Source of the DNA: Candidatus Cloacimonadales bacterium
GTDB lineage: Bacteria; Cloacimonadota; Cloacimonadia; Cloacimonadales; JAFGVF01
Assembly (NCBI GenBank): GCA_963678315.1
Contig: OY782781.1
Coordinates: 2,912,001-2,976,000 of the forward strand
Length of the DNA: 64,000 bases
Direction: 5' to 3'
Shown here: piece after piece, positions 2,554-64,000 of the stretch
How positions within the stretch are numbered: the first letter of the stretch is position 1
Layout: each line of letters begins with the position of its first letter
Notes under the pieces: model-generated
Databases searched by the model: none
Seen by the model: only the letters and a program-made list of their open reading frames with translations
What the model was told of the DNA's origin: nothing
Made by a program: the position numbers and the translations under genes

Positions 2554-2587
2554 AAAAAAAAAGAGCCTTGGCAAAACCAAGGCTCTT
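2554..2587 (-). terminator. intrinsic terminator
   Basis: AAGAGCCTTGG/CCAAGGCTCTT stem preceded by an A-tract (U-tract on minus strand), between convergent genes. Confidence 0.75.
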
Positions 2588-2686
2588 CTATAGGAACAAA
2601 AATCCTACAATAATATTATATTTTTATCATTTACCATACTTCTAAAAGTCCATTTACTAGGATTAAAGAAGCAGGTTCAGATGATA

Positions 2687-4186
2687 CTATTTCATTAAGA
2701 TCATTTTCTTAGTTCCACTATATTTTCCATTTGTCATTTTGTAGAAATATAATCCTGAAGAAACTTTATTATTGTTATTATCTCTACCATTCCAAACAAC
2801 TTTATGGTTTCCAAGTGTTTGAGGAGAATTAACTAAAGTATTAACCAATTGACCTTTAACATTATATATTTCAATTGATACATTTTCATTATAATTAACA
2901 TTATAAGAGATAGTTGTTTCAGGGTTAAATGGATTTGGATAGTTATCAATCAAGCCAATGTGAGAAGCTACATCTTCTAAATCTTCATTAGCAACAGGTT
3001 CTGATAATAGGTTAAAAGTAACTTCAACGTTAGACATTTGATGACCACCATCACCATAACTATCAGCAATATTAAGTATCCATTCACCAATAGGATCTTG
3101 ACCAACAAAATCATATAATGTGATATCTAGAGCTGTAGGGTTAGTATCAGAAGCGTTGAAGAGTGTTAAGACCTCTCCACTTGGTGATTGAAGTGTTAGT
3201 GAACCTTCAGATGGGTAGTCCACAGATGTCCATGTTCCTGTTAAATGAATAGAAACAATAGGATCTTGAACATAAATAAAGAATGAAGTCCAACCTAAAT
3301 CTGCAAAAGAATTACTAAATGGTGCAGTATTATTTGGGTAAGCTGCTTGAGCAGGACTATCATCAGCAGTATTAATTACTGCTTCAGTTTGATCTTCACT
3401 AGGAACAGCCATTACTGAGATAACATAGTCTAAGACTTCACCAGATGAAGAACCTTGGATTGAAACTGTGAATGAACCCATAGTAGCAGTAGTTTCAATA
3501 GTTAACTCTGTACCTGTAATTGTAGCAGAAATAGCTTCATCATCAGAAACTTCTGTTACAGTATATTCAACAGGGTCACCTAATGGATGATACATGAGAC
3601 CGTCTAGCTCGATATTTGTTGTTGAAGTAAGCTCAAGTACTTGAGCAGGAATTGATCCTGTATAATGAATATGTGAAAAAGTAGCAACTGCACCTGGCAC
3701 TGCTGCTTGGGCACTTGACCATTCGTTCTCACCATACATTAAGATATTACCAGCCCCGATAACTGCGAAGAATGGTACATAACCATTACCAAATGCAGAA
3801 TATTGAGCATCTAGTTCTGGTGCATAAGGAAGGTTAGTATGGCCTTGAGCACTCCAATCGTGTGCTGTTAATAAATAAACTTCATCTGCGTTTTGTTCTG
3901 GAAACCAAGTATTTAACTGCGGCGCCGCCGCAACACAACCTGATCAACCAGGTGAACCCCAGAAAAAGACAACAGCTTTTCCTGAGTTAGTTACTTGACT
4001 TAGTGATGTAGATTCACCATTTAAAGTCCATGTAAAATCATCAACAATCTCACCAACTCCATAAGCACGGGAGTTAATCACTACATCAGCATCCTTATAT
4101 TGCTTAGGACTGATAGGTGTAAATGATTGACCGATTAATGAAAATGTTGTTAAAATCACAAAAATGGTAATTACAAATTTTTTCAT
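2687..4186 (-). CDS. secreted selenoprotein candidate (~499 aa): signal peptide, thioredoxin-fold redoxin with UxxC, proprotein-convertase P-like domain, FlgD/T9SS-type C-terminal domain; in-frame TGA at 3944-3946
   Basis: ORFs 3944-4186 and 2687-3739 share one frame; the 68 intervening codons have no stop; reads FFWGSPG-U-SGC...NGYVPFF; GC-rich hairpin just after the TGA. Confidence 0.85.
3918..3943 (-). promoter_or_regulatory. bacterial SECIS-like hairpin
   Basis: After TGA: TCAGGTTGTGT-TGCGGC-GGC-GCCGCA; perfect GC stem with a G-initiated loop 17 nt after the TGA, made of GCG GCG GCG CCG codons atypical for this AT-rich DNA. Confidence 0.7.
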
Positions 4187-4230
4187 GTAATCTCCTATTT
4201 AGTTATTCCTTAGATTTTCTAAGTTATCCT

Positions 4231-4259
4231 AATATAGAACTATTTGCATATAATGTCAA
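4231..4259 (-). promoter_or_regulatory. sigma70-type promoter
   Basis: TTGACA-17 nt-TATATT on the minus strand upstream of the ATG at 4186. Confidence 0.55.
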
Positions 4260-4741: not shown

Positions 4742-7198
4742 GTGAAGAAAATAATTCTATGTATTCTATTTATAATTATTGGATTGCTGTATGCCCAAGG
4801 AACTATGCCTCAAGGACAAGGGACTGAAGAAAATCCTTTTTTAGTAACAAGTTTAGATAATCTTAGGTATATTTCTGAGCATGAAGATATGTGGCTAAAC
4901 AAGCACTATCTACAAACTAATGATATTGATGCATCTGATACTGAAAATTGGAATGATAGTACTGGTTTTGACGGATTTGGAGAACTTGAAGTATTTTATG
5001 ATGAGGAGGATGATGATGAAAGCTATCATGAATATCATTATTTTGATTCAACATATTCAGGAAATGGATTCACAATATTTAACTTATATTCACACAGATC
5101 AATGGCAAGTTTTATTTCATTGTTGGGAGAGAATGGAATTGTGGAAAATTTAAACTTTTCTTCTCCAGAGATTATTGGTAGCAACTATTCAGCCGTCATT
5201 GCTGCACATTGTAATGGTCTTGTAAGGAATTGTAATATAACTGATGCAAATGTTGTATGTATGAGAGTTGGATTTGTTACAGCCTTATTGAGTGGAGATG
5301 GAAAAATAATAAACTGTGATATTGAGGGAGAAATTGCTGGCTATAGCAATTATCCGGGTACTGGTATAATTGCAGGTTATGTTCACGATGGTCAGAGCAA
5401 CACAGGTCAAATGATAATAGATTGCAGTGCTAGAGTAATATTTGGAGATGACACAATTTCTAACCAACCATTTGTTAAAGGTCTCATTGGAAATGATAAG
5501 TATAAAACAGTAAAAAATTCCTATTATTGCATCGAGAACAATGATGAAACAAGTTCTAACTTTACTGGGTTTGGAGGCATAAGTGAAGAACTATTTCAAG
5601 AATGGCTAGATAATGGCAAAGAACTACAAATAAACAATTATCTGACTCATGATGGGGATGATTATATTATTGATAGCCCTAATGATTTCGAGTATGTCAG
5701 AGCTTTTTACGATACAACACTGACTTATAGTATCTCGAATGATTTAGATTTTTCACTATACCCTAATCTAAATATTCCATATACTCGATCTTCTTTCGAA
5801 GGTAATAATCACACCATTTGCAATATTACATTTGATTCAGATAACTTATATGTTGCACCAATAGGGATTTTTAGAGGAGAATATTTTCAGAATTTAAATG
5901 TTTCAGATGGTAATGTTATCGGGTATAAGTATGTATCACTCTTAATAGCAGATAATTATGGAAATGTTTCTAACTGTCATGTTACCGGAAATGTAACAGG
6001 TCAATATTTTGTAGGAGGTATGATTGGAAATTCTGTTAGGAGAATAAATACTTCAGTTTTGGATTGCTCTGCTAATGTTACCATAGTTGGAGAAAGCTGG
6101 GTTGGAGGATTATTAGGTTGTGGAGTTGCAACAAATTGTAACGCTTATTCTGTTATAGATGCTAGCAGTTTTGTTGGAGGTATGATAGGAGTTGGGTGCG
6201 CTATAAATTGTAACGTTGAAACAGAGCTAAGTGGTTCTTCTCGTATTGGGGGCTTATTGGGGGTTGGTTATGCTACTGCTTCATCATCAATAGGGACTAT
6301 TGAAGGTGTAGTAAATATCGGAGGGCTCATAGGATATGTCAACAATTATGAATCAGCAAGTACGAATATTTCAGAAGATATCGAAAGATTGGAAATCATG
6401 GAAAACAATTTTTCAAGCTGTGAAATATCAGGAGTCTCCGAAATTGGAGGATTATATGGTTATGTAAAAGGTATTTATGATATTATTATTAAAGATAGCT
6501 ATTCTATTGGTCAAATAAATATTTCATCAAGGTCATATTCTAGTAGTCAAATAAACTCAGGTGGATTTATAGGTGAAACTTTTCAAGATGATATTGAAAT
6601 AAGAGATTGTTACACTGCATCAGAAATAGTCTATCCTTTAAATGAAATTGAAGATATATCATCTATTTCAGCTTTTATCGGCAATTCAACAGAAGAAATT
6701 GATATTTATAATTGTTTCTGCAGCGAAGAAATTGCAGGAGTTCCTGCACACAACGGGGCTAATAATGTAACTATAGCTGAACTTCACAATATAAACACTT
6801 ATCTTGATGTAGGATGGGATTTTGCTAACACATGGACTATTGATAGTGAAGCAAATGGTGCTTATCCTTACTTAAGAATTCACCAAGCTACTCCAAACAT
6901 AGAAGAAGAAGTAGAACATATCCAAGTATCTAATATTCTAAAATCAGCTTATCCAAATCCTTTTAATCCAGAAACTACTATCGAATTTACAGTAAAAGAT
7001 GATGAGATGGCTTCCCTAAAAATATACAACATTAAAGGTCAGCTTGTGAAAAATTTTGATATATTTGAATCAGGTGAGCATAAAATTGTTTGGCAAGGTA
7101 CTAACAACAAAAATAAGAGAGTAGCTTCTGGTTTATATCTATACAAATTAGAATCTAAAAATTCATCTCAGATTAAAAAAGTACTAATGATTAAGTAA
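4742..7198 (+). CDS. secreted GLUG-repeat (beta-helix-like) protein with FlgD/T9SS-type C-terminal domain
   Basis: Signal peptide, GxGTEENPF motif, repeated VGG(L/M)(I/L)G motifs, AYPNPFNPETTI tail. Confidence 0.8.
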   Translation: MKKIILCILFIIIGLLYAQGTMPQGQGTEENPFLVTSLDNLRYISEHEDMWLNKHYLQTNDIDASDTENWNDSTGFDGFGELEVFYDEEDDDESYHEYHYFDSTYSGNGFTIFNLYSHRSMASFISLLGENGIVENLNFSSPEIIGSNYSAVIAAHCNGLVRNCNITDANVVCMRVGFVTALLSGDGKIINCDIEGEIAGYSNYPGTGIIAGYVHDGQSNTGQMIIDCSARVIFGDDTISNQPFVKGLIGNDKYKTVKNSYYCIENNDETSSNFTGFGGISEELFQEWLDNGKELQINNYLTHDGDDYIIDSPNDFEYVRAFYDTTLTYSISNDLDFSLYPNLNIPYTRSSFEGNNHTICNITFDSDNLYVAPIGIFRGEYFQNLNVSDGNVIGYKYVSLLIADNYGNVSNCHVTGNVTGQYFVGGMIGNSVRRINTSVLDCSANVTIVGESWVGGLLGCGVATNCNAYSVIDASSFVGGMIGVGCAINCNVETELSGSSRIGGLLGVGYATASSSIGTIEGVVNIGGLIGYVNNYESASTNISEDIERLEIMENNFSSCEISGVSEIGGLYGYVKGIYDIIIKDSYSIGQINISSRSYSSSQINSGGFIGETFQDDIEIRDCYTASEIVYPLNEIEDISSISAFIGNSTEEIDIYNCFCSEEIAGVPAHNGANNVTIAELHNINTYLDVGWDFANTWTIDSEANGAYPYLRIHQATPNIEEEVEHIQVSNILKSAYPNPFNPETTIEFTVKDDEMASLKIYNIKGQLVKNFDIFESGEHKIVWQGTNNKNKRVASGLYLYKLESKNSSQIKKVLMIK

Positions 7199-8133: not shown

Positions 8134-10389
8134 CTATATAAGACTAGATTGCTTATCGATAATACTAAACCCAAGGCTTTTGTATGCTTTCTTACGTTTA
8201 TTATACATTTTACTTAGTCTTTCAATATTGCCATCAACATAATCATAAACTTCGATAGATGTTTTATTCTCGTAAGTTCTAACTATTCTGCCAATATATT
8301 GATTAAGTGTTCCTTTCCAAGAAATGGGAAGAGCTAGAAATAGAGTATCAAGAATTGGTAAATCAAATCCTTCTCCTATATATTTACCAGTAGCTATTAT
8401 TATAAATTTATCATTAGAGCTAAGTGATGCTAGTTTATTCTTAGTCGTTTCTTTAGCCTTTGTCTTCATGTTGCCTTTGAGAACAATTATCTTGTCACAT
8501 ATTGGCGATAACTTCTCTTCAAGTATTTTTAGATGTGATACTCGCTCTGTTAATAAAAGAGGCTTTCTTCCTTTATCTAAAGCTTGAGCTATATCATTAC
8601 ATATTTTATTATTTCTATTAAAATCTTCTGACAAAATAGATAATTGCTTAGCTAAAGTAATATTTCCATCTACAGCATTTGAACCTGTTTCTATTTTATA
8701 AGCTATCATAGAATCAAATGATAGTTTAGTTGTAGATCTATATTTGATTTGACCACACTGCATGAAGACTATTGGATGATGTCCATCTTTTCTATTAGGT
8801 GTTGCAGACATTCCCAATATGTATTTAGCTTTTGACTTCTTTAAAATATTTTCAAAAGTGAAGGCAGCTATATGGTGGCATTCATCTATAATTATCTGTC
8901 CATATTGATCAATATTTTGAGCTGAAACATTCTTAAGAGTCTGGATCATAGCTATGTCAATTTGTAGTGTTTGGTTTGATTTTGTAGCACCTAGAGTGCC
9001 AATTTCGCATCCCGCAGTAAATATCTTTAATTTTTCTTTCCATTGGTTAAGAAGCTCAGTTCTGTGAACTAATATCAGTGTATTAACCTTTCTTTCGCAT
9101 ATTATTTTTGTAGCTAATACAGTTTTTCCAAAACCTGTAGAAGCGCACAAAACCGACATTTCATGCTTTATAAGTTCATTAAATGCCTGAACTTGTTTAG
9201 GAAACAACTTCCCTTGGAAACTACAATCAATCTTCTTTCCTTTGTTTCTCTGGTCATGAATTACATACCTTAACTTATTAGATACTATCGTCTCAATAAC
9301 TTTTTCATATAGTCCTGTAGGTAAACAAAGCATTTGGGGAAGGTTATTACCACATTGAATAAATCTTGGTATTTTATGAGTGGAACGCCTGGAAGCTTGT
9401 GCTATGTAAAACTCAGGATTAGAAAACACTGCTAGTTGAAGTAATTTATGATATAGATGCTTCGGTAACCCATTCTTACTAATATAAATTTGGTTTGAAA
9501 GAATAATACTAATCTTCTGTCTTTGATTAGTATCACATACTGGAATTATTATCTCCTTATTTCTGAGAATATCATCAACATCATTCTTAGTTAATCTATT
9601 TACAAGAGATAAATAAGCCCATTGGTCTTTAAATGGTTTAAATTCAGTATCAACAAATACAGAACCATTAAAGGATCTAGCTCTTTTTTGCAATGGGAGT
9701 GCTATCAAGTTACCAAAACCACCCTCTGGCAAGTAATCTTGATTTGGAAACATTCTATCATAAGATTCAAGATCTAGTAAATTACCGGTCTTCAGAGTCT
9801 CCGATATGATATGAGCACCTAATTTTCTTGCCAGTAAAGCTGTAATATCTTCTGAAAAGAAAATCCATAAGTGTGCACCTTTACCAGAACGTGATATTTC
9901 TATAGATGAAGGAATATTTAGTAGCATACAAGTTGAATAAACTGCTAATACATCTTTCTTCCAGTCTTTTTTATCAAAGTCAATTGCTAAGAATCTACAG
10001 CAATCATTATCCATTATTGGATATATTCCTACAACAATAACTCCTGAAAGATGATTATATATCACTCTATCACTTATTGGCTTGAAGTCTCTGTATTGGC
10101 AATTAACACATTTGATTTTGGGAAGACCACATTTAGGTTTTACCCATTTGTTATTACAGACTGGAGAATATCCAGATACACCTTTATTTTCCCATCTTTG
10201 AGCAAAAAAGTCTTCTCTACCTTTAAACAAAGAACGAAACAGTTTAATTTTATCTTCAGTTGAACTTAAATTATTAATTACCTTAGACTTTCTTGCAAGA
10301 ATTTCTTGGTTTTCAGAAAGACCTAACAATTTTCTAAGATATTTGTTTTCTTCTTCAAGTTGTTTGATTCTTTGTTTTAAGGAGTCCAT
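8134..10389 (-). CDS. AEP primase-like domain fused to an SF2 (DEAD/DEAH, ResIII-like) helicase; TOTE-conflict-system-like architecture
   Basis: LAIDFD and SRSGKGAHLW primase motifs, GNLIALPLQ; STGFGKT Walker A, DECHH, SATP, GEGFDLP helicase motifs. Confidence 0.8.
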   Translation of the reverse strand: MDSLKQRIKQLEEENKYLRKLLGLSENQEILARKSKVINNLSSTEDKIKLFRSLFKGREDFFAQRWENKGVSGYSPVCNNKWVKPKCGLPKIKCVNCQYRDFKPISDRVIYNHLSGVIVVGIYPIMDNDCCRFLAIDFDKKDWKKDVLAVYSTCMLLNIPSSIEISRSGKGAHLWIFFSEDITALLARKLGAHIISETLKTGNLLDLESYDRMFPNQDYLPEGGFGNLIALPLQKRARSFNGSVFVDTEFKPFKDQWAYLSLVNRLTKNDVDDILRNKEIIIPVCDTNQRQKISIILSNQIYISKNGLPKHLYHKLLQLAVFSNPEFYIAQASRRSTHKIPRFIQCGNNLPQMLCLPTGLYEKVIETIVSNKLRYVIHDQRNKGKKIDCSFQGKLFPKQVQAFNELIKHEMSVLCASTGFGKTVLATKIICERKVNTLILVHRTELLNQWKEKLKIFTAGCEIGTLGATKSNQTLQIDIAMIQTLKNVSAQNIDQYGQIIIDECHHIAAFTFENILKKSKAKYILGMSATPNRKDGHHPIVFMQCGQIKYRSTTKLSFDSMIAYKIETGSNAVDGNITLAKQLSILSEDFNRNNKICNDIAQALDKGRKPLLLTERVSHLKILEEKLSPICDKIIVLKGNMKTKAKETTKNKLASLSSNDKFIIIATGKYIGEGFDLPILDTLFLALPISWKGTLNQYIGRIVRTYENKTSIEVYDYVDGNIERLSKMYNKRKKAYKSLGFSIIDKQSSLI

Positions 10390-10408
10390 AATATCTTCAT
10401 GTTAATGG

Positions 10409-11410
10409 TTACTCTTTCTTAGTTTTACGACTACCTATCTTAGCTTGTTTCTCAATAGAATTAATTGTTTCTAGATATTCTTTTTCAACACTTTCAAGAG
10501 TTTTGGCTTTATATTTTTTGTATTCTTCTTTAGCTTTTGATTTAGCTTGATTTGAGGATATTGAGTCTGAATTATTTAACACTTTACGACCAGTGGAAGA
10601 GAGTATGCTATCTAATTCTCTAACGAAATCAGACATAGTCATCGCTCTTTCTTCTATAGCATTAAGTTCAGCTAAATCGAAATATGCTGATACTAAATTA
10701 TTCAATACTTTCAGTTCCTGTATAGATAAATAATTTTTTGCAATCATTGCTTCTGCTTGGGTTGGTTGTTCTCCTCTGAAATTTGTAAGACCTACAAAAG
10801 GTTTATTACTATCAACTCGAAGATAAATTACTTCACTTGCCGTATTCCCATGAGCTGCAAAGTGTAGTTTGTTCTGAACAATTTTAAAAAAAATCATGCT
10901 TTCATCGCTTTTAGGATTATAATCAATAGCGGTAGCATAGAGTTCTAAAACTTGTCTATACATAACTTTTTCACTGCTTCTTATGTCTCTAATTCTTTCA
11001 AGTAATTCCTTCCAGTAATTACCACCACCAAAATTTTTTAATCGCTGGTCATCGATAGTAAAACCTTTAACAATATATTCTTTAATCCTAGTGGTTGCCC
11101 ATTGTCTAAAACGGGTACCCTGAATAGATTTAACCCTGTAACCAACTGAAATAATAACATCTAGATTATAATAATTAGTAGGTTTAGTAGAAAAATCGGA
11201 ATTTCCGATTTTTCTCATTGTATCATTTCTATCAAGCTCTTCTTCTTTATATATATTAAGTATGTGTTCATTAATTGTCGAACGGCTTTTTTCAAACAAC
11301 TCAGACATTTGTTCTATGGTCAACCAAACAGTTTCTTCTTCTAATCTAACCGAAATATTTGATTTTCCATCATCACTTCTGTATATTATTATTTCATTAT
11401 TTTTACTCAT
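10409..11410 (-). CDS. RhuM-family DNA-binding protein
   Basis: YNLDVIISVGYRVKS..GTRFRQWAT, RIRDIRSSEK, VQNKLHFA and AKNYL motifs; alternative start at 11428. Confidence 0.85.
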   Translation of the reverse strand: MSKNNEIIIYRSDDGKSNISVRLEEETVWLTIEQMSELFEKSRSTINEHILNIYKEEELDRNDTMRKIGNSDFSTKPTNYYNLDVIISVGYRVKSIQGTRFRQWATTRIKEYIVKGFTIDDQRLKNFGGGNYWKELLERIRDIRSSEKVMYRQVLELYATAIDYNPKSDESMIFFKIVQNKLHFAAHGNTASEVIYLRVDSNKPFVGLTNFRGEQPTQAEAMIAKNYLSIQELKVLNNLVSAYFDLAELNAIEERAMTMSDFVRELDSILSSTGRKVLNNSDSISSNQAKSKAKEEYKKYKAKTLESVEKEYLETINSIEKQAKIGSRKTKKE

Positions 11411-11796
11411 TATAAATCCTTTTAACATAAGCCTACATGTAAATTATATTATTTATCAAGCATTACATATTAATGTTAATTGTCAAGAAATGAGAGAAAA
11501 ATCGGAATTTCCGATTATTCTATTTATAACTAAAATTGTTTTTCACTATGGTGGTCTGAAAGATTTAAGAATGATAAATGATATTCATCTTTAAACAGCA
11601 TAGTATAATGTGCTACTTGACTTGTAGTTAGGGGTCCTCTCTGAAATAACTTTACCTATATCTATATAGGCTAGTATCATTTCAGAGTTAACTGCACTAT
11701 AAGTCTTGTATTGTGATTTCTCAATCCCTTTTTAAGTTCAATGAAAGCATCTAAGCAATCTTGTTTAAGTGAGTTTTGATTCATGAGGAATTACTG

Positions 11797-12642
11797 CTAA
11801 TCTTTGTCCTCTAACTCTTTTAATGTTAAACCATCTTTAGACTTCCACTCAGCCAATCCATTGGCTGTTCTACCTAAAACAAGAGATGCTGCTGTAGAAG
11901 CACTTGTAAATAGATAATCCTGAGTAATAATAAGTGAATTATTCTTTAATTCTAAAACTTCGTCTGTGATTAATCTTTCTCTAAATTTATTATGACTCTG
12001 TTTGAAAGAATTAACTACTGGAGATGAAAAAAATGAGTCTTTTAAAACAACAAAACCTTCTGAAGTAACTATGCCCTTTGCATTAGCACCGCGAGGACCT
12101 GAAAGATATAGGATATCTTTATTCTCAACTTTAACTTTTACTATTTCATCAAACACTTTATGTCCAAGTACTGGTACTATCATCAAGATGTTTCGGATAA
12201 ACTCTTCCATTTCGGCTTGATCAGCTTCTGATATTATAGGTATTCTAGGGTTCTGTATATTTACTACATTGTACCTTTTAGTGTATATCGCAATTTGAAT
12301 TAATCTATGTTCTAAATATCTTATATGAGCTTTGTTAAGATTTTCATCTTTACTAGTAAAAACAAGTACCTCATTCCAGAAATCCTTTCCTAAGTCGTGC
12401 TTAGTTAGTCTTGTATATATTTCTTCAGATTCGCCTATATATATAGAATTACTGTCATCATCGTCTTTGCCGAATAAGAAATATACTCCTGTTCCTTTTA
12501 GTTCAGGTCTATCATTACTTTCTTTTAATAAAACTCGTGGAATTTTAATTGCCTTGCCTGACCAATTAGATAATTCACAGGTCAATCTTCCATCAGAAGT
12601 ACCATCCATAAGATATAGCTTTATTGATTTTGGTGTTTTCAT
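11797..12642 (-). CDS. GIY-YIG nuclease with C-terminal DUF4357-like domain
   Basis: GVYFLFG...IYIGESE, LNKAHIRYLE, FTSASTAASLVLGRTANGLAEWK. Confidence 0.85.
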   Translation of the reverse strand: MKTPKSIKLYLMDGTSDGRLTCELSNWSGKAIKIPRVLLKESNDRPELKGTGVYFLFGKDDDDSNSIYIGESEEIYTRLTKHDLGKDFWNEVLVFTSKDENLNKAHIRYLEHRLIQIAIYTKRYNVVNIQNPRIPIISEADQAEMEEFIRNILMIVPVLGHKVFDEIVKVKVENKDILYLSGPRGANAKGIVTSEGFVVLKDSFFSSPVVNSFKQSHNKFRERLITDEVLELKNNSLIITQDYLFTSASTAASLVLGRTANGLAEWKSKDGLTLKELEDKD

Positions 12643-60729: not shown

Positions 60730-62934
60730 ATGTTAAAAAGACTATTTTTATTAGTAATATTACTAGCTATTTTAAGTTTGAGTGCTGTTTTCGACTTAAG
60801 TTTAGAATCTGAGTTTAATACTTCGTCTAGAACTAGATGTTTGCACATGAGTATTGATGGAGATTACTTATGCTACAATAGTTTTCATGGACTACATATT
60901 ATTGACCAAGACTTTAATGAATTTAATGAGATACCATTGTCCAATATTGATGATTTTCAGATGTGCAACAATAATTTATATACATACACTGACCATGGGG
61001 AGCTTAATTCATACACAATAGATCTTTATAGGAACTATTTAACCAATAGTGGAGAATATAGATCTATAACATTTACCAATAGTTCAATGTGGCGAATGTC
61101 CAAGTGTAACAATGTTTTATTAATCAACTATTATGACTATGATAATCACGGATATCGTACTCTGACTTTAGATTCCTACTTAGCTGTATCTCATATTGAA
61201 TCTTTAGATGATTATAAATTTCTATCCAAAATTAATAATAGTGATTATATCTTAGCAAATAATGAGAATAATGATTCAATATGCATGTTCTCTATTTCAT
61301 CTGAGGCAAATAATACTGTCGATATTATAGACTTGCCAGATAGTAACTATTATGAAGGGAGTCTCTACAACAATATATTAGCATTAAGAAACCAAGAAAG
61401 TGTTGATTTTATAAATCTAGAGACAAATGAGACTTTCTACAACTATACTTATGATGATGCCCTGAACTCATACAATGGTATCTATGTTGATGAGACTGTA
61501 TTGATTTTTGCTACATACATTGACTCCAGATTTAAACTAAAGGTTGTTGATATTGCTTCAGGAGAACTTCTAATGTACAAGGATGTTAATGATCTAGTGA
61601 ATCTGCAATATATGGAATTATCATTTTTATCAGAATTGTGTCAATGTGAGAATGATTTATATTTAATTGCTAACAATCAACCGTTAATCAAACTACAAGT
61701 TAACAATGATGATATTGAGTTAGTTGATTATTTTAACAATGTTTACTCTCCTATACTAGGGACTTACAGCAATGAAAACTACTTTTATCATTGTAATATT
61801 CCAGAGCTACTTGTTACAGATATAAGTGACCCCTCAAATCCTGTTAACATAGAGCACAATCTCCCAGATGGTATATATCAATGGTATGATATAAATGAAC
61901 AACTAACTGCTTTGCGATATAATCTTGATAATGGTATGCTATATCACTACACAATAGAAAATAATGAAATAGTAAGCTCTGACTCATTAGTTAACCTATC
62001 TATTTTTCAAGATGACTATATGACCCCTTTAGATTGTAATGAAGAAAGAGTAATATATAAAAACTCAGAGGGGGTTAAAGCTGTTGATCTAATAGATCAT
62101 TCGCTAATGTGGGAGTTAGATTATAACTCACCAGTTATGTTACAAGCAGTTATTGGTGATTACTTATATGTTGGTGAATTTATGCACAATGATTATACAG
62201 TATATCAGTTTGATAATGAGTCTATTACATTTATTCAAGATTTCCATACTGATAACATTGAGTTTGCTGATTTTTACACTCAAGATGAAATGTTAGTTGT
62301 TCATGGTTTTGAAGGTGGCTATTGCTATGATATCAGAGAAAATCCTGTACCGCAAGAGCCAATCTTAGAAGATGTTATAACTAACGTCAACAGTAATATT
62401 GTTTCATTTAACAATAGCAAGCTGTTTGTAGGGAATATACTACAAGATGGTCAAGAATTATCCAACTACTTGTGTTGTATCAATGAAGATGATGGAAACT
62501 TCTCTCTTATTGGAGCAATACCTGTAATGTATGAATACGTCAATGTAAGTTTAAATTACATCGACAATACAAACTTCAACATTATCTTTGATGGAAATGT
62601 AGGTTCTGCGATCTATTCATGTCATTTAACCCCCAACGGAAACTTTGAAGTTCAACCTGTTAATCTAGAATGTTCAAACTACCCTAATCCTTTTAATCCG
62701 CAAACGACTATTTCCTATAATATTGATAAAGCGTCAGATGTAGAGCTAACAATCTATAATATTAAAGGTCAGAAAGTAAGAACACTTGTTGATGATCAAC
62801 AAGAAGCAGGTAGACATGATATTGTTTGGGATGGTACAGATAGCAAGGGTAAGAAAGTAGCTTCAGGAACTTACCTCTATAAGGTAAAAGCTGATGACCA
62901 AGAAGTAGTAAATAAGATGTTAATGATTAAATAA
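60730..62934 (+). CDS. large secreted beta-propeller-like protein with FlgD/T9SS-type C-terminal domain
   Basis: GGAGG RBS, signal peptide, LVIVD-like LVTDISDPSNP, NYPNPFNPQTTI tail. Confidence 0.8.
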   Translation: MLKRLFLLVILLAILSLSAVFDLSLESEFNTSSRTRCLHMSIDGDYLCYNSFHGLHIIDQDFNEFNEIPLSNIDDFQMCNNNLYTYTDHGELNSYTIDLYRNYLTNSGEYRSITFTNSSMWRMSKCNNVLLINYYDYDNHGYRTLTLDSYLAVSHIESLDDYKFLSKINNSDYILANNENNDSICMFSISSEANNTVDIIDLPDSNYYEGSLYNNILALRNQESVDFINLETNETFYNYTYDDALNSYNGIYVDETVLIFATYIDSRFKLKVVDIASGELLMYKDVNDLVNLQYMELSFLSELCQCENDLYLIANNQPLIKLQVNNDDIELVDYFNNVYSPILGTYSNENYFYHCNIPELLVTDISDPSNPVNIEHNLPDGIYQWYDINEQLTALRYNLDNGMLYHYTIENNEIVSSDSLVNLSIFQDDYMTPLDCNEERVIYKNSEGVKAVDLIDHSLMWELDYNSPVMLQAVIGDYLYVGEFMHNDYTVYQFDNESITFIQDFHTDNIEFADFYTQDEMLVVHGFEGGYCYDIRENPVPQEPILEDVITNVNSNIVSFNNSKLFVGNILQDGQELSNYLCCINEDDGNFSLIGAIPVMYEYVNVSLNYIDNTNFNIIFDGNVGSAIYSCHLTPNGNFEVQPVNLECSNYPNPFNPQTTISYNIDKASDVELTIYNIKGQKVRTLVDDQQEAGRHDIVWDGTDSKGKKVASGTYLYKVKADDQEVVNKMLMIK

Positions 62935-62942
62935 TTCTGTTA

Positions 62943-62968
62943 GGAGCAGGCTTTTTAGTCTGCTCTTT
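62943..62968 (+). terminator. probable intrinsic terminator
   Basis: GAGCAGGCT-TTTT-AGTCTGCTC followed by TTT, just after the stop at 62934. Confidence 0.6.
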
Positions 62969-63081
62969 AATTAATTTTGTTACAGTGAGATAACAAATTA
63001 TTCGACTAAATCAATAAATAGTTTGACATCTAAATTAAAAATGCTAAAGTTTGCAATATGTTTTAATAGCAAGAGGTAAAC

Positions 63082-63222
63082 ATGAAAGAAAATGGGGTTT
63101 ATATTTTAAACAAATTTGAAGTAGGACAATTCTACGCTAAAAATCATAACTTAAATTATGGGGCAAATAATCCTCATAAGCTATATATATATATATACTT
63201 TAGAAATCTAGCTTTCCCATAA
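63082..63222 (+). CDS. leader peptide (46 aa) containing a (TA)8 tract
   Basis: Same RBS and N-terminus as 60054; one fewer TA gives the ending LYIYIYFRNLAFP*. Confidence 0.6.
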   Translation: MKENGVYILNKFEVGQFYAKNHNLNYGANNPHKLYIYIYFRNLAFP

Positions 63223-63340
63223 TAAACGACTGAATTCAATGTGAGAGCTGAATTCAGTCCGTAATAAACACTACAAGTGTTGTGTTGAAATTAATCAACG
63301 CAACATTATTACAAAAATAAAAAAAATAAAGGAAAATATT

Positions 63341-63682
63341 ATGAAAAAGATAATAATAATGTTGTTAGCCTTGTTGGCTATTGGGATAGTTAGTGCGAAA
63401 ACAATACATATACACACAGATATGATAATTGATAACATAGCCGTATATAGATACGACCATCTTGGCACCTGTAGTTTGTATAATACATATGGTAATTGTA
63501 AAGATATCAGTGGCCTACCTTCAGGAACATACAGAACAGTTATTGACGGAAAAACTATAATTGATCGTTTCCCTGTTACATGGGTTGAAGATAATATTTG
63601 GTTGATTACTGGCGATGAAGTTACTATTGAAAAATACTATGATACGGCGTCTGGTGATCCAGGAACAGGTAATGAACAATAA
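63341..63682 (+). CDS. small secreted protein
   Basis: Same signal peptide as 60315-60677, different mature region. Confidence 0.75.
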   Translation: MKKIIIMLLALLAIGIVSAKTIHIHTDMIIDNIAVYRYDHLGTCSLYNTYGNCKDISGLPSGTYRTVIDGKTIIDRFPVTWVEDNIWLITGDEVTIEKYYDTASGDPGTGNEQ

Positions 63683-63738
63683 ATAAAGCATTCAGGGTAG
63701 ATAATCTACCCTGAATTCTACACTTTTAAGGAGGATAA

Positions 63739-64000
63739 ATGGCTTTTTTTAGAATTTCAACTATCTTATTATTTTGTTTTTTAGCAGTTAGCTTATTTTG
63801 TAATGTAGATTTTGAGAGTTCCAATTATTTTGGAATTGCAGATTCACCTCAAAATTTTTTTAAAAGTATACATATGATGAACGACTTACTAATCTCAGAA
63901 ACTGCATTTGGGTTAAATTTCAAACAAATTCATGAAGATGGTTCTCTAGAAAACTTGTGCTCTCTTAGATGTGACAGTCTTAGCAGCATTGTTGCATCCA
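63739..64000 (+). CDS. secreted protein, 3'-truncated by the window (positional counterpart of 60730-62934)
   Basis: AGGAGG RBS, MAFFRISTILLFCFLAVSLFC signal-like N-terminus, frame open to the window end. Confidence 0.7.
   Translation, partial: MAFFRISTILLFCFLAVSLFCNVDFESSNYFGIADSPQNFFKSIHMMNDLLISETAFGLNFKQIHEDGSLENLCSLRCDSLSSIVAS

Follow-up and report, generated by a model that had tools for sequence, protein, structure and literature searches.

The locus described here lies in a window of 64,000 nucleotides (nt), the whole stretch of DNA that was analyzed, from contig OY782781.1 of Candidatus Cloacimonadales bacterium. The host genome is a single contig of 2.99 Mb with 32.8% GC; all positions are window coordinates unless marked otherwise, and the gene in question is on the minus strand. 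Two minus-strand open reading frames (ORFs), 3944..4186 (80 aa, carrying a signal peptide) and 2687..3739 (350 aa, with a type IX secretion system [T9SS] sorting domain at its end), share one frame. A first-pass annotation of this DNA had described them as one frame broken only by the TGA at 3944-3946, and translation confirmed this. When TGA is read as selenocysteine (Sec, U), 4186..2687 gives 499 residues followed by a stop, and U81 is the sole departure from translation table 11. The TGA stands in the context VVFFWGSPG-U-SGC-VAAAPQLN. From the TGA to the next ATG, that of the second ORF, 69 codons are open; these codons encode GNGYVPFFAVIG and hold GNGYVPFF and invariant residues. The features of the gene are as follows.

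2687..4186, minus strand: whole gene, 499 codons and a TAG stop, with one in-frame TGA (Sec81)
4231..4259, minus strand: promoter-like site TTGACA-17-TATATT, identified only by its 11/12 match to the consensus
4191..4196, minus strand: AGGAGA ribosome-binding site, 4 nt upstream of the ATG at 4186-4184, read from the sequence
4127..4186, minus strand: signal peptide, residues ~1-20 (MKK, hydrophobic helix 2-18), assigned by inspection and model, not by a signal-peptide predictor
3683..4054, minus strand: TlpA/ResA-like thioredoxin-fold redoxin domain, residues 45-168, from models and from structure and profile matches
3944..3946, minus strand: TGA, predicted selenocysteine 81, first position of U-S-G-C, from the frame, homologues and independent assemblies
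3935..3937, minus strand: TGT, Cys84, presumed resolving residue of UxxC, invariant in the alignments
3916..3934, minus strand: hairpin resembling a selenocysteine insertion sequence (SECIS), core stem 3932-3927 with 3923-3918 and loop GGC at 3926-3924
3773..3775, minus strand: Pro138 of GNGY-V-P, the expected cis-Pro loop, invariant, from alignments and model
3404..3664, minus strand: immunoglobulin (Ig)-like beta-sandwich, residues 175-261, from the AlphaFold model
3005..3388, minus strand: P-domain-like beta-sandwich, residues 267-394, with a DSYGDGGH motif, from a sub-threshold Pfam match and the model
2690..2959, minus strand: T9SS type A C-terminal sorting domain, residues 410-499, from PF18962, TIGR04183 and the model
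2559..2589, minus strand: intrinsic-terminator-like hairpin followed by a T run, from a sequence scan

We conclude that the TGA at 3946-3944 is very probably a genuine selenocysteine codon and the gene a predicted selenoprotein gene. We also hold with good confidence that this is a single gene for an exported, T9SS-type UxxC redoxin selenoprotein; our confidence in the nature of its substrate is distinctly lower.

The genome contains the machinery for selenocysteine. The tRNA-Sec scored 61.4 bits and was called SeC, with anticodon tca, by ARAGORN. It is directly adjoined by selA (487 bits) and selB (325 bits), both of which have open frames free of TGA, and selD (357 bits) has one in-frame TGA of its own. 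All of these matches were above curated cut-offs, and selA, selB, selC and selD, the genes that the first-pass annotation had named as a check on its prediction, are all present. The selD gene (G000:C1:725680-726606, minus strand) is itself a selenoprotein gene, with the TGA in the context YSGUGAK.

Residues 1-165 were searched against 232 genomes of the phylum, with the own genome excluded and E <= 3e-16 taken as a strong match. Exactly one in-frame TGA was found in 58 of the 60 strong matches, and none in the remaining two, which were located by tblastn and read CxxS and SxxS. Because 58 of 60 homologues carry exactly one, the in-frame TGA is beyond chance. The strong matches are spread over 52 other genomes (37 of the 62 in taxonomic family f12, 13 of the 21 in f17, and one each in f5 and f13), and with its own genome counted the gene is in 53/232. 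All 30 loci fetched place the TGA within one shared motif, FWGxxxUxxC; a signal peptide opens each copy, and a sorting domain closes each copy that is complete. Invariant positions in 34 sequences were W53, U/C81, C84, P89, G133-N134-G135 and P138.

With regard to distribution, the gene was found in one of 12 genomes of its own taxonomic family (0 of the 11 others), and the nearest copies, with 45-55% identity, sit in other families. This patchy occurrence points to an old lateral transfer or repeated loss. The gene family further includes a redox-dead SxxS member, a monothiol CxxS member and a distant UxxC paralogue with a hairpin of its own (L085, L086, L087). One of these loci, L086 (G185:C145), has a Sec paralogue at a distance of 7 kb.

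Among 1.84 billion representative proteins there were 53 matches at E <= 0.001. Most of them begin just past the TGA, a sign of split annotation. The protein collection also contains the 80-aa first ORF, 100% identical. The expectation that automated annotation would split the gene was thus borne out, with the 80-aa fragment and truncated 'hypothetical protein' relatives both on record. The protein matches that span the whole region carry CGGC, CSYC or CGPC at the site of U81, and the CGGC homologue, with 48% identity, has a sorting tail. Across these homologues the predicted Sec alternates with Cys at site 81 and never with Trp, which is the alternation that had been put forward as a check. 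A protein search with residues 1-170 through an insensitive word index showed no full-length Sec-annotated form; its sole match was a 557-aa 'hypothetical protein' with 47% of the region covered.

The possibility that the TGA is a read error had also been raised. Independent public assemblies (X2 record 12, X3 record 13 and X10 record 4, from two other studies) keep the TGA; all differences in these contigs are placed at other positions, and none falls in 3916-3946. Because the independent assemblies differ only outside the TGA site, a sequencing error is excluded.

The hairpin begins 11 nt past the TGA and has a 6-bp stem and a 3-nt GGC loop at nt 21-23. Its statistics were obtained from an alignment of 28 genes and compared with 500 shuffles and with slid controls. 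Columns 19-26 are invariant in 28/28 genes; all 28 form pairs 17-27, 19-25 and 20-24, and 27 form pair 18-26. Changes on both sides of a pair occur at 17-27 (CG in 25 genes, AU in 3) and at 15-29 (AU in 14, UA in 9). Paired cells amounted to 83%, compared with 73.6% in the shuffles. The covariation score was 0.231 compared with 0.114 in the shuffles and was reached by 0/500, a pair score inflated by kinship among the genes and by the derivation of the structure from the same sequences. The slid controls gave at most 62.9% paired cells and a score of 0.137.

Codon usage is a stronger argument for the hairpin than these pairing statistics. The hairpin is spelled GCG-GCG-GCG-CCG, codons 86-89 (Ala-Ala-Ala-Pro), and these codons hold the only three GCG among the 36 Ala codons of the gene and the only CCG among its 26 Pro codons. 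Across the genome, 2.3% of Ala codons are GCG, and 3.5% of Pro codons are CCG. The 13-mer core of the hairpin is found once in the whole 2.99-Mb genome. The SxxS and CxxS homologues use GCA, GCT or GCC alanines and have no hairpin. In the distant UxxC paralogue the stem differs and is rich in AU, and the GGC loop again lies at nt 21-23; the selD hairpin, also 3' of its TGA, is similar in build (7-bp stem, GGU loop). A scan of 3800-4050 against Rfam returned no SECIS family and two chance-level matches only (E 1.8 and 4). These results suggest that the hairpin is a putative SECIS, a stem-loop just 3' of the UGA whose apical loop contains G and keeps a constant spacing from it.

The fold of the protein was modeled with AlphaFold2 on the 34-sequence alignment, and the full-length model had a mean pLDDT (predicted local distance difference test) of 86.2. 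In order, it contains a signal helix (residues 2-18), a disordered linker (19-39), a thioredoxin fold (45-168), an Ig-like sandwich (175-261), a second beta-sandwich (267-394), a linker (399-408) and the sorting domain (410-497). Foldseek with the whole 499-residue model was uninformative, being dominated by multi-Ig proteins. The redoxin domain modeled alone reached a pLDDT of 96.7. Its best structural match was Etrx2, a surface-exposed thioredoxin lipoprotein of the pneumococcus, with a TM (template modeling) score of 0.74-0.76; a ResA-like oxidoreductase, TlpA and CcmG came next, and peroxiredoxins were somewhat lower. Profile matches in the PDB, down to E 3e-5, were to a thiol-disulfide isomerase, tryparedoxin and ResA. 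The N-terminal domain is, on these models and matches, a predicted TlpA/ResA-like thioredoxin fold, remote by sequence.

The active site agrees with what the first-pass annotation had claimed for it. The TGA occupies the place of the first Cys of a thioredoxin-fold CxxC, with U81 at the start of helix 1 in the confident models. C84 is invariant in both alignments and is the only Cys in the 499-residue translation; the passenger domains are cysteine-free. The candidate cis-Pro of the YVP motif corresponds to Pro138, which is invariant in 34/34 and 32/32 sequences and precedes the strand 140-143 in the model.

Mean column identity was 63% for the redoxin head and 25% for the whole proteins. In relatives, the passengers are P-domain-like plus carboxypeptidase-regulatory-like domains, PKD plus a right-handed beta-helix, fn3, cleaved-adhesin, MAM and others. 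By this comparison the predicted redoxin head is the constant part, and the passenger domains are swapped among relatives.

The sorting domain of the downstream half was above curated cut-offs (PF18962, 39.5 vs 27 bits; TIGR04183, 39.3 vs 23), and the upstream half begins with a Sec-type signal peptide, recognized by inspection and by the model helix 2-18; both had been noted before. The search for the T9SS machinery covered PorU and SprA, and both are in the genome (573.6 vs 420 bits and 517 vs 200 bits, respectively), together with about 100 other sorting-domain proteins. The P-domain label stood in part. The region is a beta-sandwich in the model; its assignment to the Pfam P-domain (PF01483) fell short of the threshold (20.8 bits vs a cut-off of 21), with 2 of 34 family members matching at E <= 0.001, and the protein has no protease domain. 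We treat the label as borderline, and the second sandwich is better named a P-domain-like beta-sandwich than a P-domain.

The protein contains 3.0% Lys+Arg, and neither residue occurs in the 373 residues from 71 to 443. The median was 4.3% in 59 sorting-domain ORFs compared with 11.3% in 1118 other long ORFs. This Lys/Arg-poor composition fits an extracellular life; it may give protection from the secreted proteases of the organism itself or may be a requirement of the T9SS. We infer that the protein is exported by the T9SS to the cell surface or released.

In 8 of 21 distinct loci of relatives, the selenoprotein gene directly abuts a conserved DsbD cluster, consisting of genes for full-length DsbD, a ~365-aa CxxC protein (an apparent lipoprotein with a weak DUF1223 match), a 169-aa TlpA-like CxxC protein, DUF6029 and a ~250-aa T9SS cargo. 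Two Sec paralogues flank the cluster in one genome, and part of it lies ~7 kb from the gene in one further locus. In the present genome, DsbD has the usual cysteines, a CxxC occurs in both the 364-aa and the 172-aa protein, and DUF6029 and the small T9SS cargo have conserved Cys pairs. The DUF6029 family is commonest in Cloacimonadota (ESM Atlas). As guilt by association, the linkage suggests that a DsbD-fed route charges the selenoprotein, either in the periplasm or out to the surface.

From these results the following mechanism may be proposed. The hairpin would recruit SelB carrying Sec-tRNA(Sec), and the ribosome would decode UGA-81 as selenocysteine. The signal peptide would direct export through the Sec translocon; the protein would fold in the periplasm, and its type A sorting domain would hand it off to the SprA translocon and PorU sortase, with the cell surface or release as the probable final place. 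The U81 selenolate may then attack a disulfide or other oxidized sulfur species of the substrate, C84 may resolve the selenylsulfide intermediate, and Pro138 would line the site. The enzyme would act at the surface of an anaerobic amino-acid fermenter as a thiol-disulfide reductase or isomerase, with the Ig-like and P-domain-like sandwiches as a possible stalk or binding module. Its reducing power would probably come from a DsbD-fed envelope pathway, as judged only from the gene linkage in relatives.

An extended form of this scheme, which we regard as speculative and rather unlikely, makes the selenoprotein the outermost member of a thiol-disulfide relay spanning the envelope. Electrons would pass from a cytoplasmic reductant to DsbD in the inner membrane and on to two periplasmic proteins, the CxxC lipoprotein and the TlpA-like protein; DUF6029, which may be an outer-membrane protein, the small T9SS cargo and the surface UxxC selenoprotein would follow in that order. 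If true, the relay would provide an uncultured anaerobe with enzymatic reducing power outside the outer membrane, for example for opening disulfides of extracellular proteins before proteolysis, and type IX secretion would have its first case of a selenoenzyme as cargo.

Several observations weigh against the proposed reading. Besides the inflation of the pair scores, the number of pairs changed on both sides was equalled in 44 of the 500 shuffles, the hairpin is short (6 bp with a 3-nt loop), and the folding energy of the 66-nt region is ordinary (z = -1.28; 25 of 200 shuffles were as stable). The Pfam scores of the redoxin domain were below the gathering thresholds (Redoxin, 21.9 vs 26.6; AhpC-TSA, 20.6 vs 26); the two families matched 24 and 23 of 32 family members, respectively, at E <= 0.01. 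As for the source of electrons, the DsbD cluster was not near the gene in 12 of the 21 loci, within at most ~10 kb per side and with several loci ending at a contig end. In the present genome the whole cluster is at ~495.2-501.1 kb of G000:C1, 2.4 Mb from the gene. To our knowledge, no reductant system exists outside the outer membrane.

Two alternatives accept a genuine selenoprotein and give it another role. In one, the protein is a surface peroxidase or scavenger, similar to peroxiredoxins and acting on peroxides or on sulfenic or selenenic species. Selenocysteine is typical of peroxide-reducing enzymes, the weak Pfam matches to AhpC-TSA and Redoxin point the same way, and the peroxiredoxins AhpE, Tpx and Bcp were among the structure matches (TM 0.64-0.70). 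Against this, the peroxiredoxin signature PxxxT/SxxC is absent from the family alignment, in which the seventh residue ahead of U is hydrophobic instead of Pro and the third ahead varies. The motif has instead the thioredoxin-type form UxxC, in which the second Cys, three residues after U, is invariant, and the closest structures and sequences are of the TlpA/ResA/Etrx and tryparedoxin types. We therefore consider a peroxidase improbable.

The other alternative, to which we give a similarly low probability, is that the selenoprotein acts in the periplasm or in cis: DsbD and TlpA would charge it before export, and it might serve T9SS cargo as a built-in checkpoint on folding or redox state, with no catalysis outside the cell. 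T9SS cargo folds in the periplasm; the DsbD and TlpA-like genes abut the selenoprotein gene in 8/21 loci, and relatives join this redoxin head to a wide range of unrelated passengers, all of which would suit such a role. With passenger domains free of cysteine, on the other hand, there is nothing to fold oxidatively in cis, and the conservation of the redoxin as the best-kept part of the family (63% vs 25%) is what a functional head would be expected to show.

A third explanation, that the TGA is a real stop and the locus consists of two genes, a gene broken by nonsense mutation or a sequencing error, is very unlikely. In its favor, gene callers split the locus, relatives are listed as N-terminally truncated 'hypothetical protein', and TGA is in use as a stop, terminating 90 of 1222 long stop-to-stop frames. 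It is opposed by the presence of TGA at the same codon in 58 of the 60 strong homologues across several families and by the 69 codons after it, which are open and encode invariant residues. Taken singly, the second ORF lacks a signal peptide and the first lacks a self-contained fold. Both a hairpin and Sec machinery exist, and the assemblies from two other studies agree. The last explanation, that TGA stands for an ordinary amino acid in this organism (Trp or Gly, as in codes 4 and 25), can practically be dismissed: TGA is indeed the rarest stop in the genome (7.4% of long frames), but a dedicated tRNA-Sec is present, selA and selB lack TGA, the codon falls exactly on the CxxC cysteine column, and general reassignment is excluded because the 103 other query-matching places in the genome have no internal stop and TGA ends those 90 of 1222 frames. 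On this counter-evidence, a pseudogene or pair of genes, TGA as Trp or Gly, and a peroxiredoxin were rejected as candidates, and we retain the reading of the locus as one gene for an exported UxxC redoxin selenoprotein.

The gene looks monocistronic, as judged from sequence signals, because it has its own promoter-like site, AGGAGA box and terminator-like hairpin. Its neighbors encode an M1 peptidase, an aquaporin, a further T9SS cargo and an unassigned 232-aa protein, and no evident link ties any of these neighboring genes to the selenoprotein gene. The divergent neighbor at 4742-7198 (plus strand) is an 818-aa T9SS cargo in which Pfam recognizes the sorting domain only; the rest of it consists of repetitive sequence with abundant Gly, Ile and Ser. 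A probable defense island lies at 8134-12642 (minus strand), with genes for a TOTE-system archaeo-eukaryotic primase plus helicase (751 aa), a RhuM-family protein (339 aa) and a DUF4357/GIY-YIG protein (281 aa). From ~62,670 to 64,000 and onward to G000:C1:2987196, there is a tandem row of at least five paralogous sorting-domain ORFs of ~750-766 aa, ~3.1 kb apart (rows at 2974671, 2977581, 2980785, 2983673 and 2986894).

Bacterial selenoproteins are mostly thought to be cytoplasmic or periplasmic redox enzymes. The present family, found in 53 of 232 Cloacimonadota genomes, would put selenocysteine chemistry on or beyond the outer membrane via type IX secretion. In public gene calls, members of the family appear as a ~60-80-residue fragment and a truncated 'hypothetical protein', so that counts of selenoproteins and of surface proteins come out too low for these bacteria, which are abundant in anaerobic digesters. 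The linkage to DsbD poses the question of how an extracellular redox enzyme is re-reduced, and the compact, invariant hairpin would be a clean natural example for SECIS models.

Etrx1 and Etrx2 of Streptococcus pneumoniae are fed by CcdA and serve a surface methionine sulfoxide reductase. As the best structural matches (PDB 4hqz, 2yp6 and 4hqs; TM 0.74-0.76, E 4e-7), they resemble the present redoxin in being extracytoplasmic, surface-exposed TlpA/ResA-like reductases; they differ from it in sequence (18-20% identity), in having Cys active sites and in being lipid-anchored in a Gram-positive envelope. The DsbD/CcdA-fed proteins TlpA, ResA and CcmG/DsbE have the same fold, and in 8 of the 21 loci of relatives DsbD and the 169-aa TlpA-like protein are encoded beside the gene. 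These proteins stay in the periplasm, whereas the present protein has an outer-membrane export signal and a predicted Sec. A thioredoxin-motif T9SS cargo is known in HBP35 of Porphyromonas gingivalis, which is reported to occur in modified form on the cell surface and, as recombinant protein, to have thioredoxin activity (PMC2907840). Unlike the present protein, HBP35 uses Cys, binds hemin and belongs to Bacteroidota; the likeness is one of description only.

In the literature searched, we found no T9SS-exported or Cloacimonadota selenoprotein of this kind. Cloacimonetes and selenocysteine came up together only in a paper on tRNA-Sec (PMC5330540), and Cloacamonas acidaminovorans and selenocysteine in one on tRNA arrays. 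The preprint by Haft on new selenoprotein families does not, in its accessible part, mention T9SS, sorting, Cloacimonadota or TlpA. According to the available sections of two reviews, UxxC selenoproteins include TlpA-like (cd02966), Redoxin (PF08534) and Prx-like (PF00578) proteins; like the present one, these have a TlpA/redoxin-like fold in which Sec takes the first of the two Cys positions of CxxC, and they are predicted by the same criteria, namely a UGA, a SECIS and Cys homologues (PMC13188914, PMC9312934). The same sections mention neither secretion nor Cloacimonadota, and those of the 2026 review (PMC13188914) mention neither signal peptide nor periplasm. Unlike the reviewed UxxC redoxins, the present family consists of multidomain T9SS cargo of 330-1000 residues and was seen only in Cloacimonadota. 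It might sit unnoticed under one of the reviewed redoxin family names. The unusual architecture claimed in the first-pass annotation therefore stands relative to the literature searched, and not for the UxxC redoxin class, which is itself well known. What is known is the UxxC thioredoxin-fold selenoprotein; what appears to be new is its T9SS-exported, multidomain and lineage-specific form.

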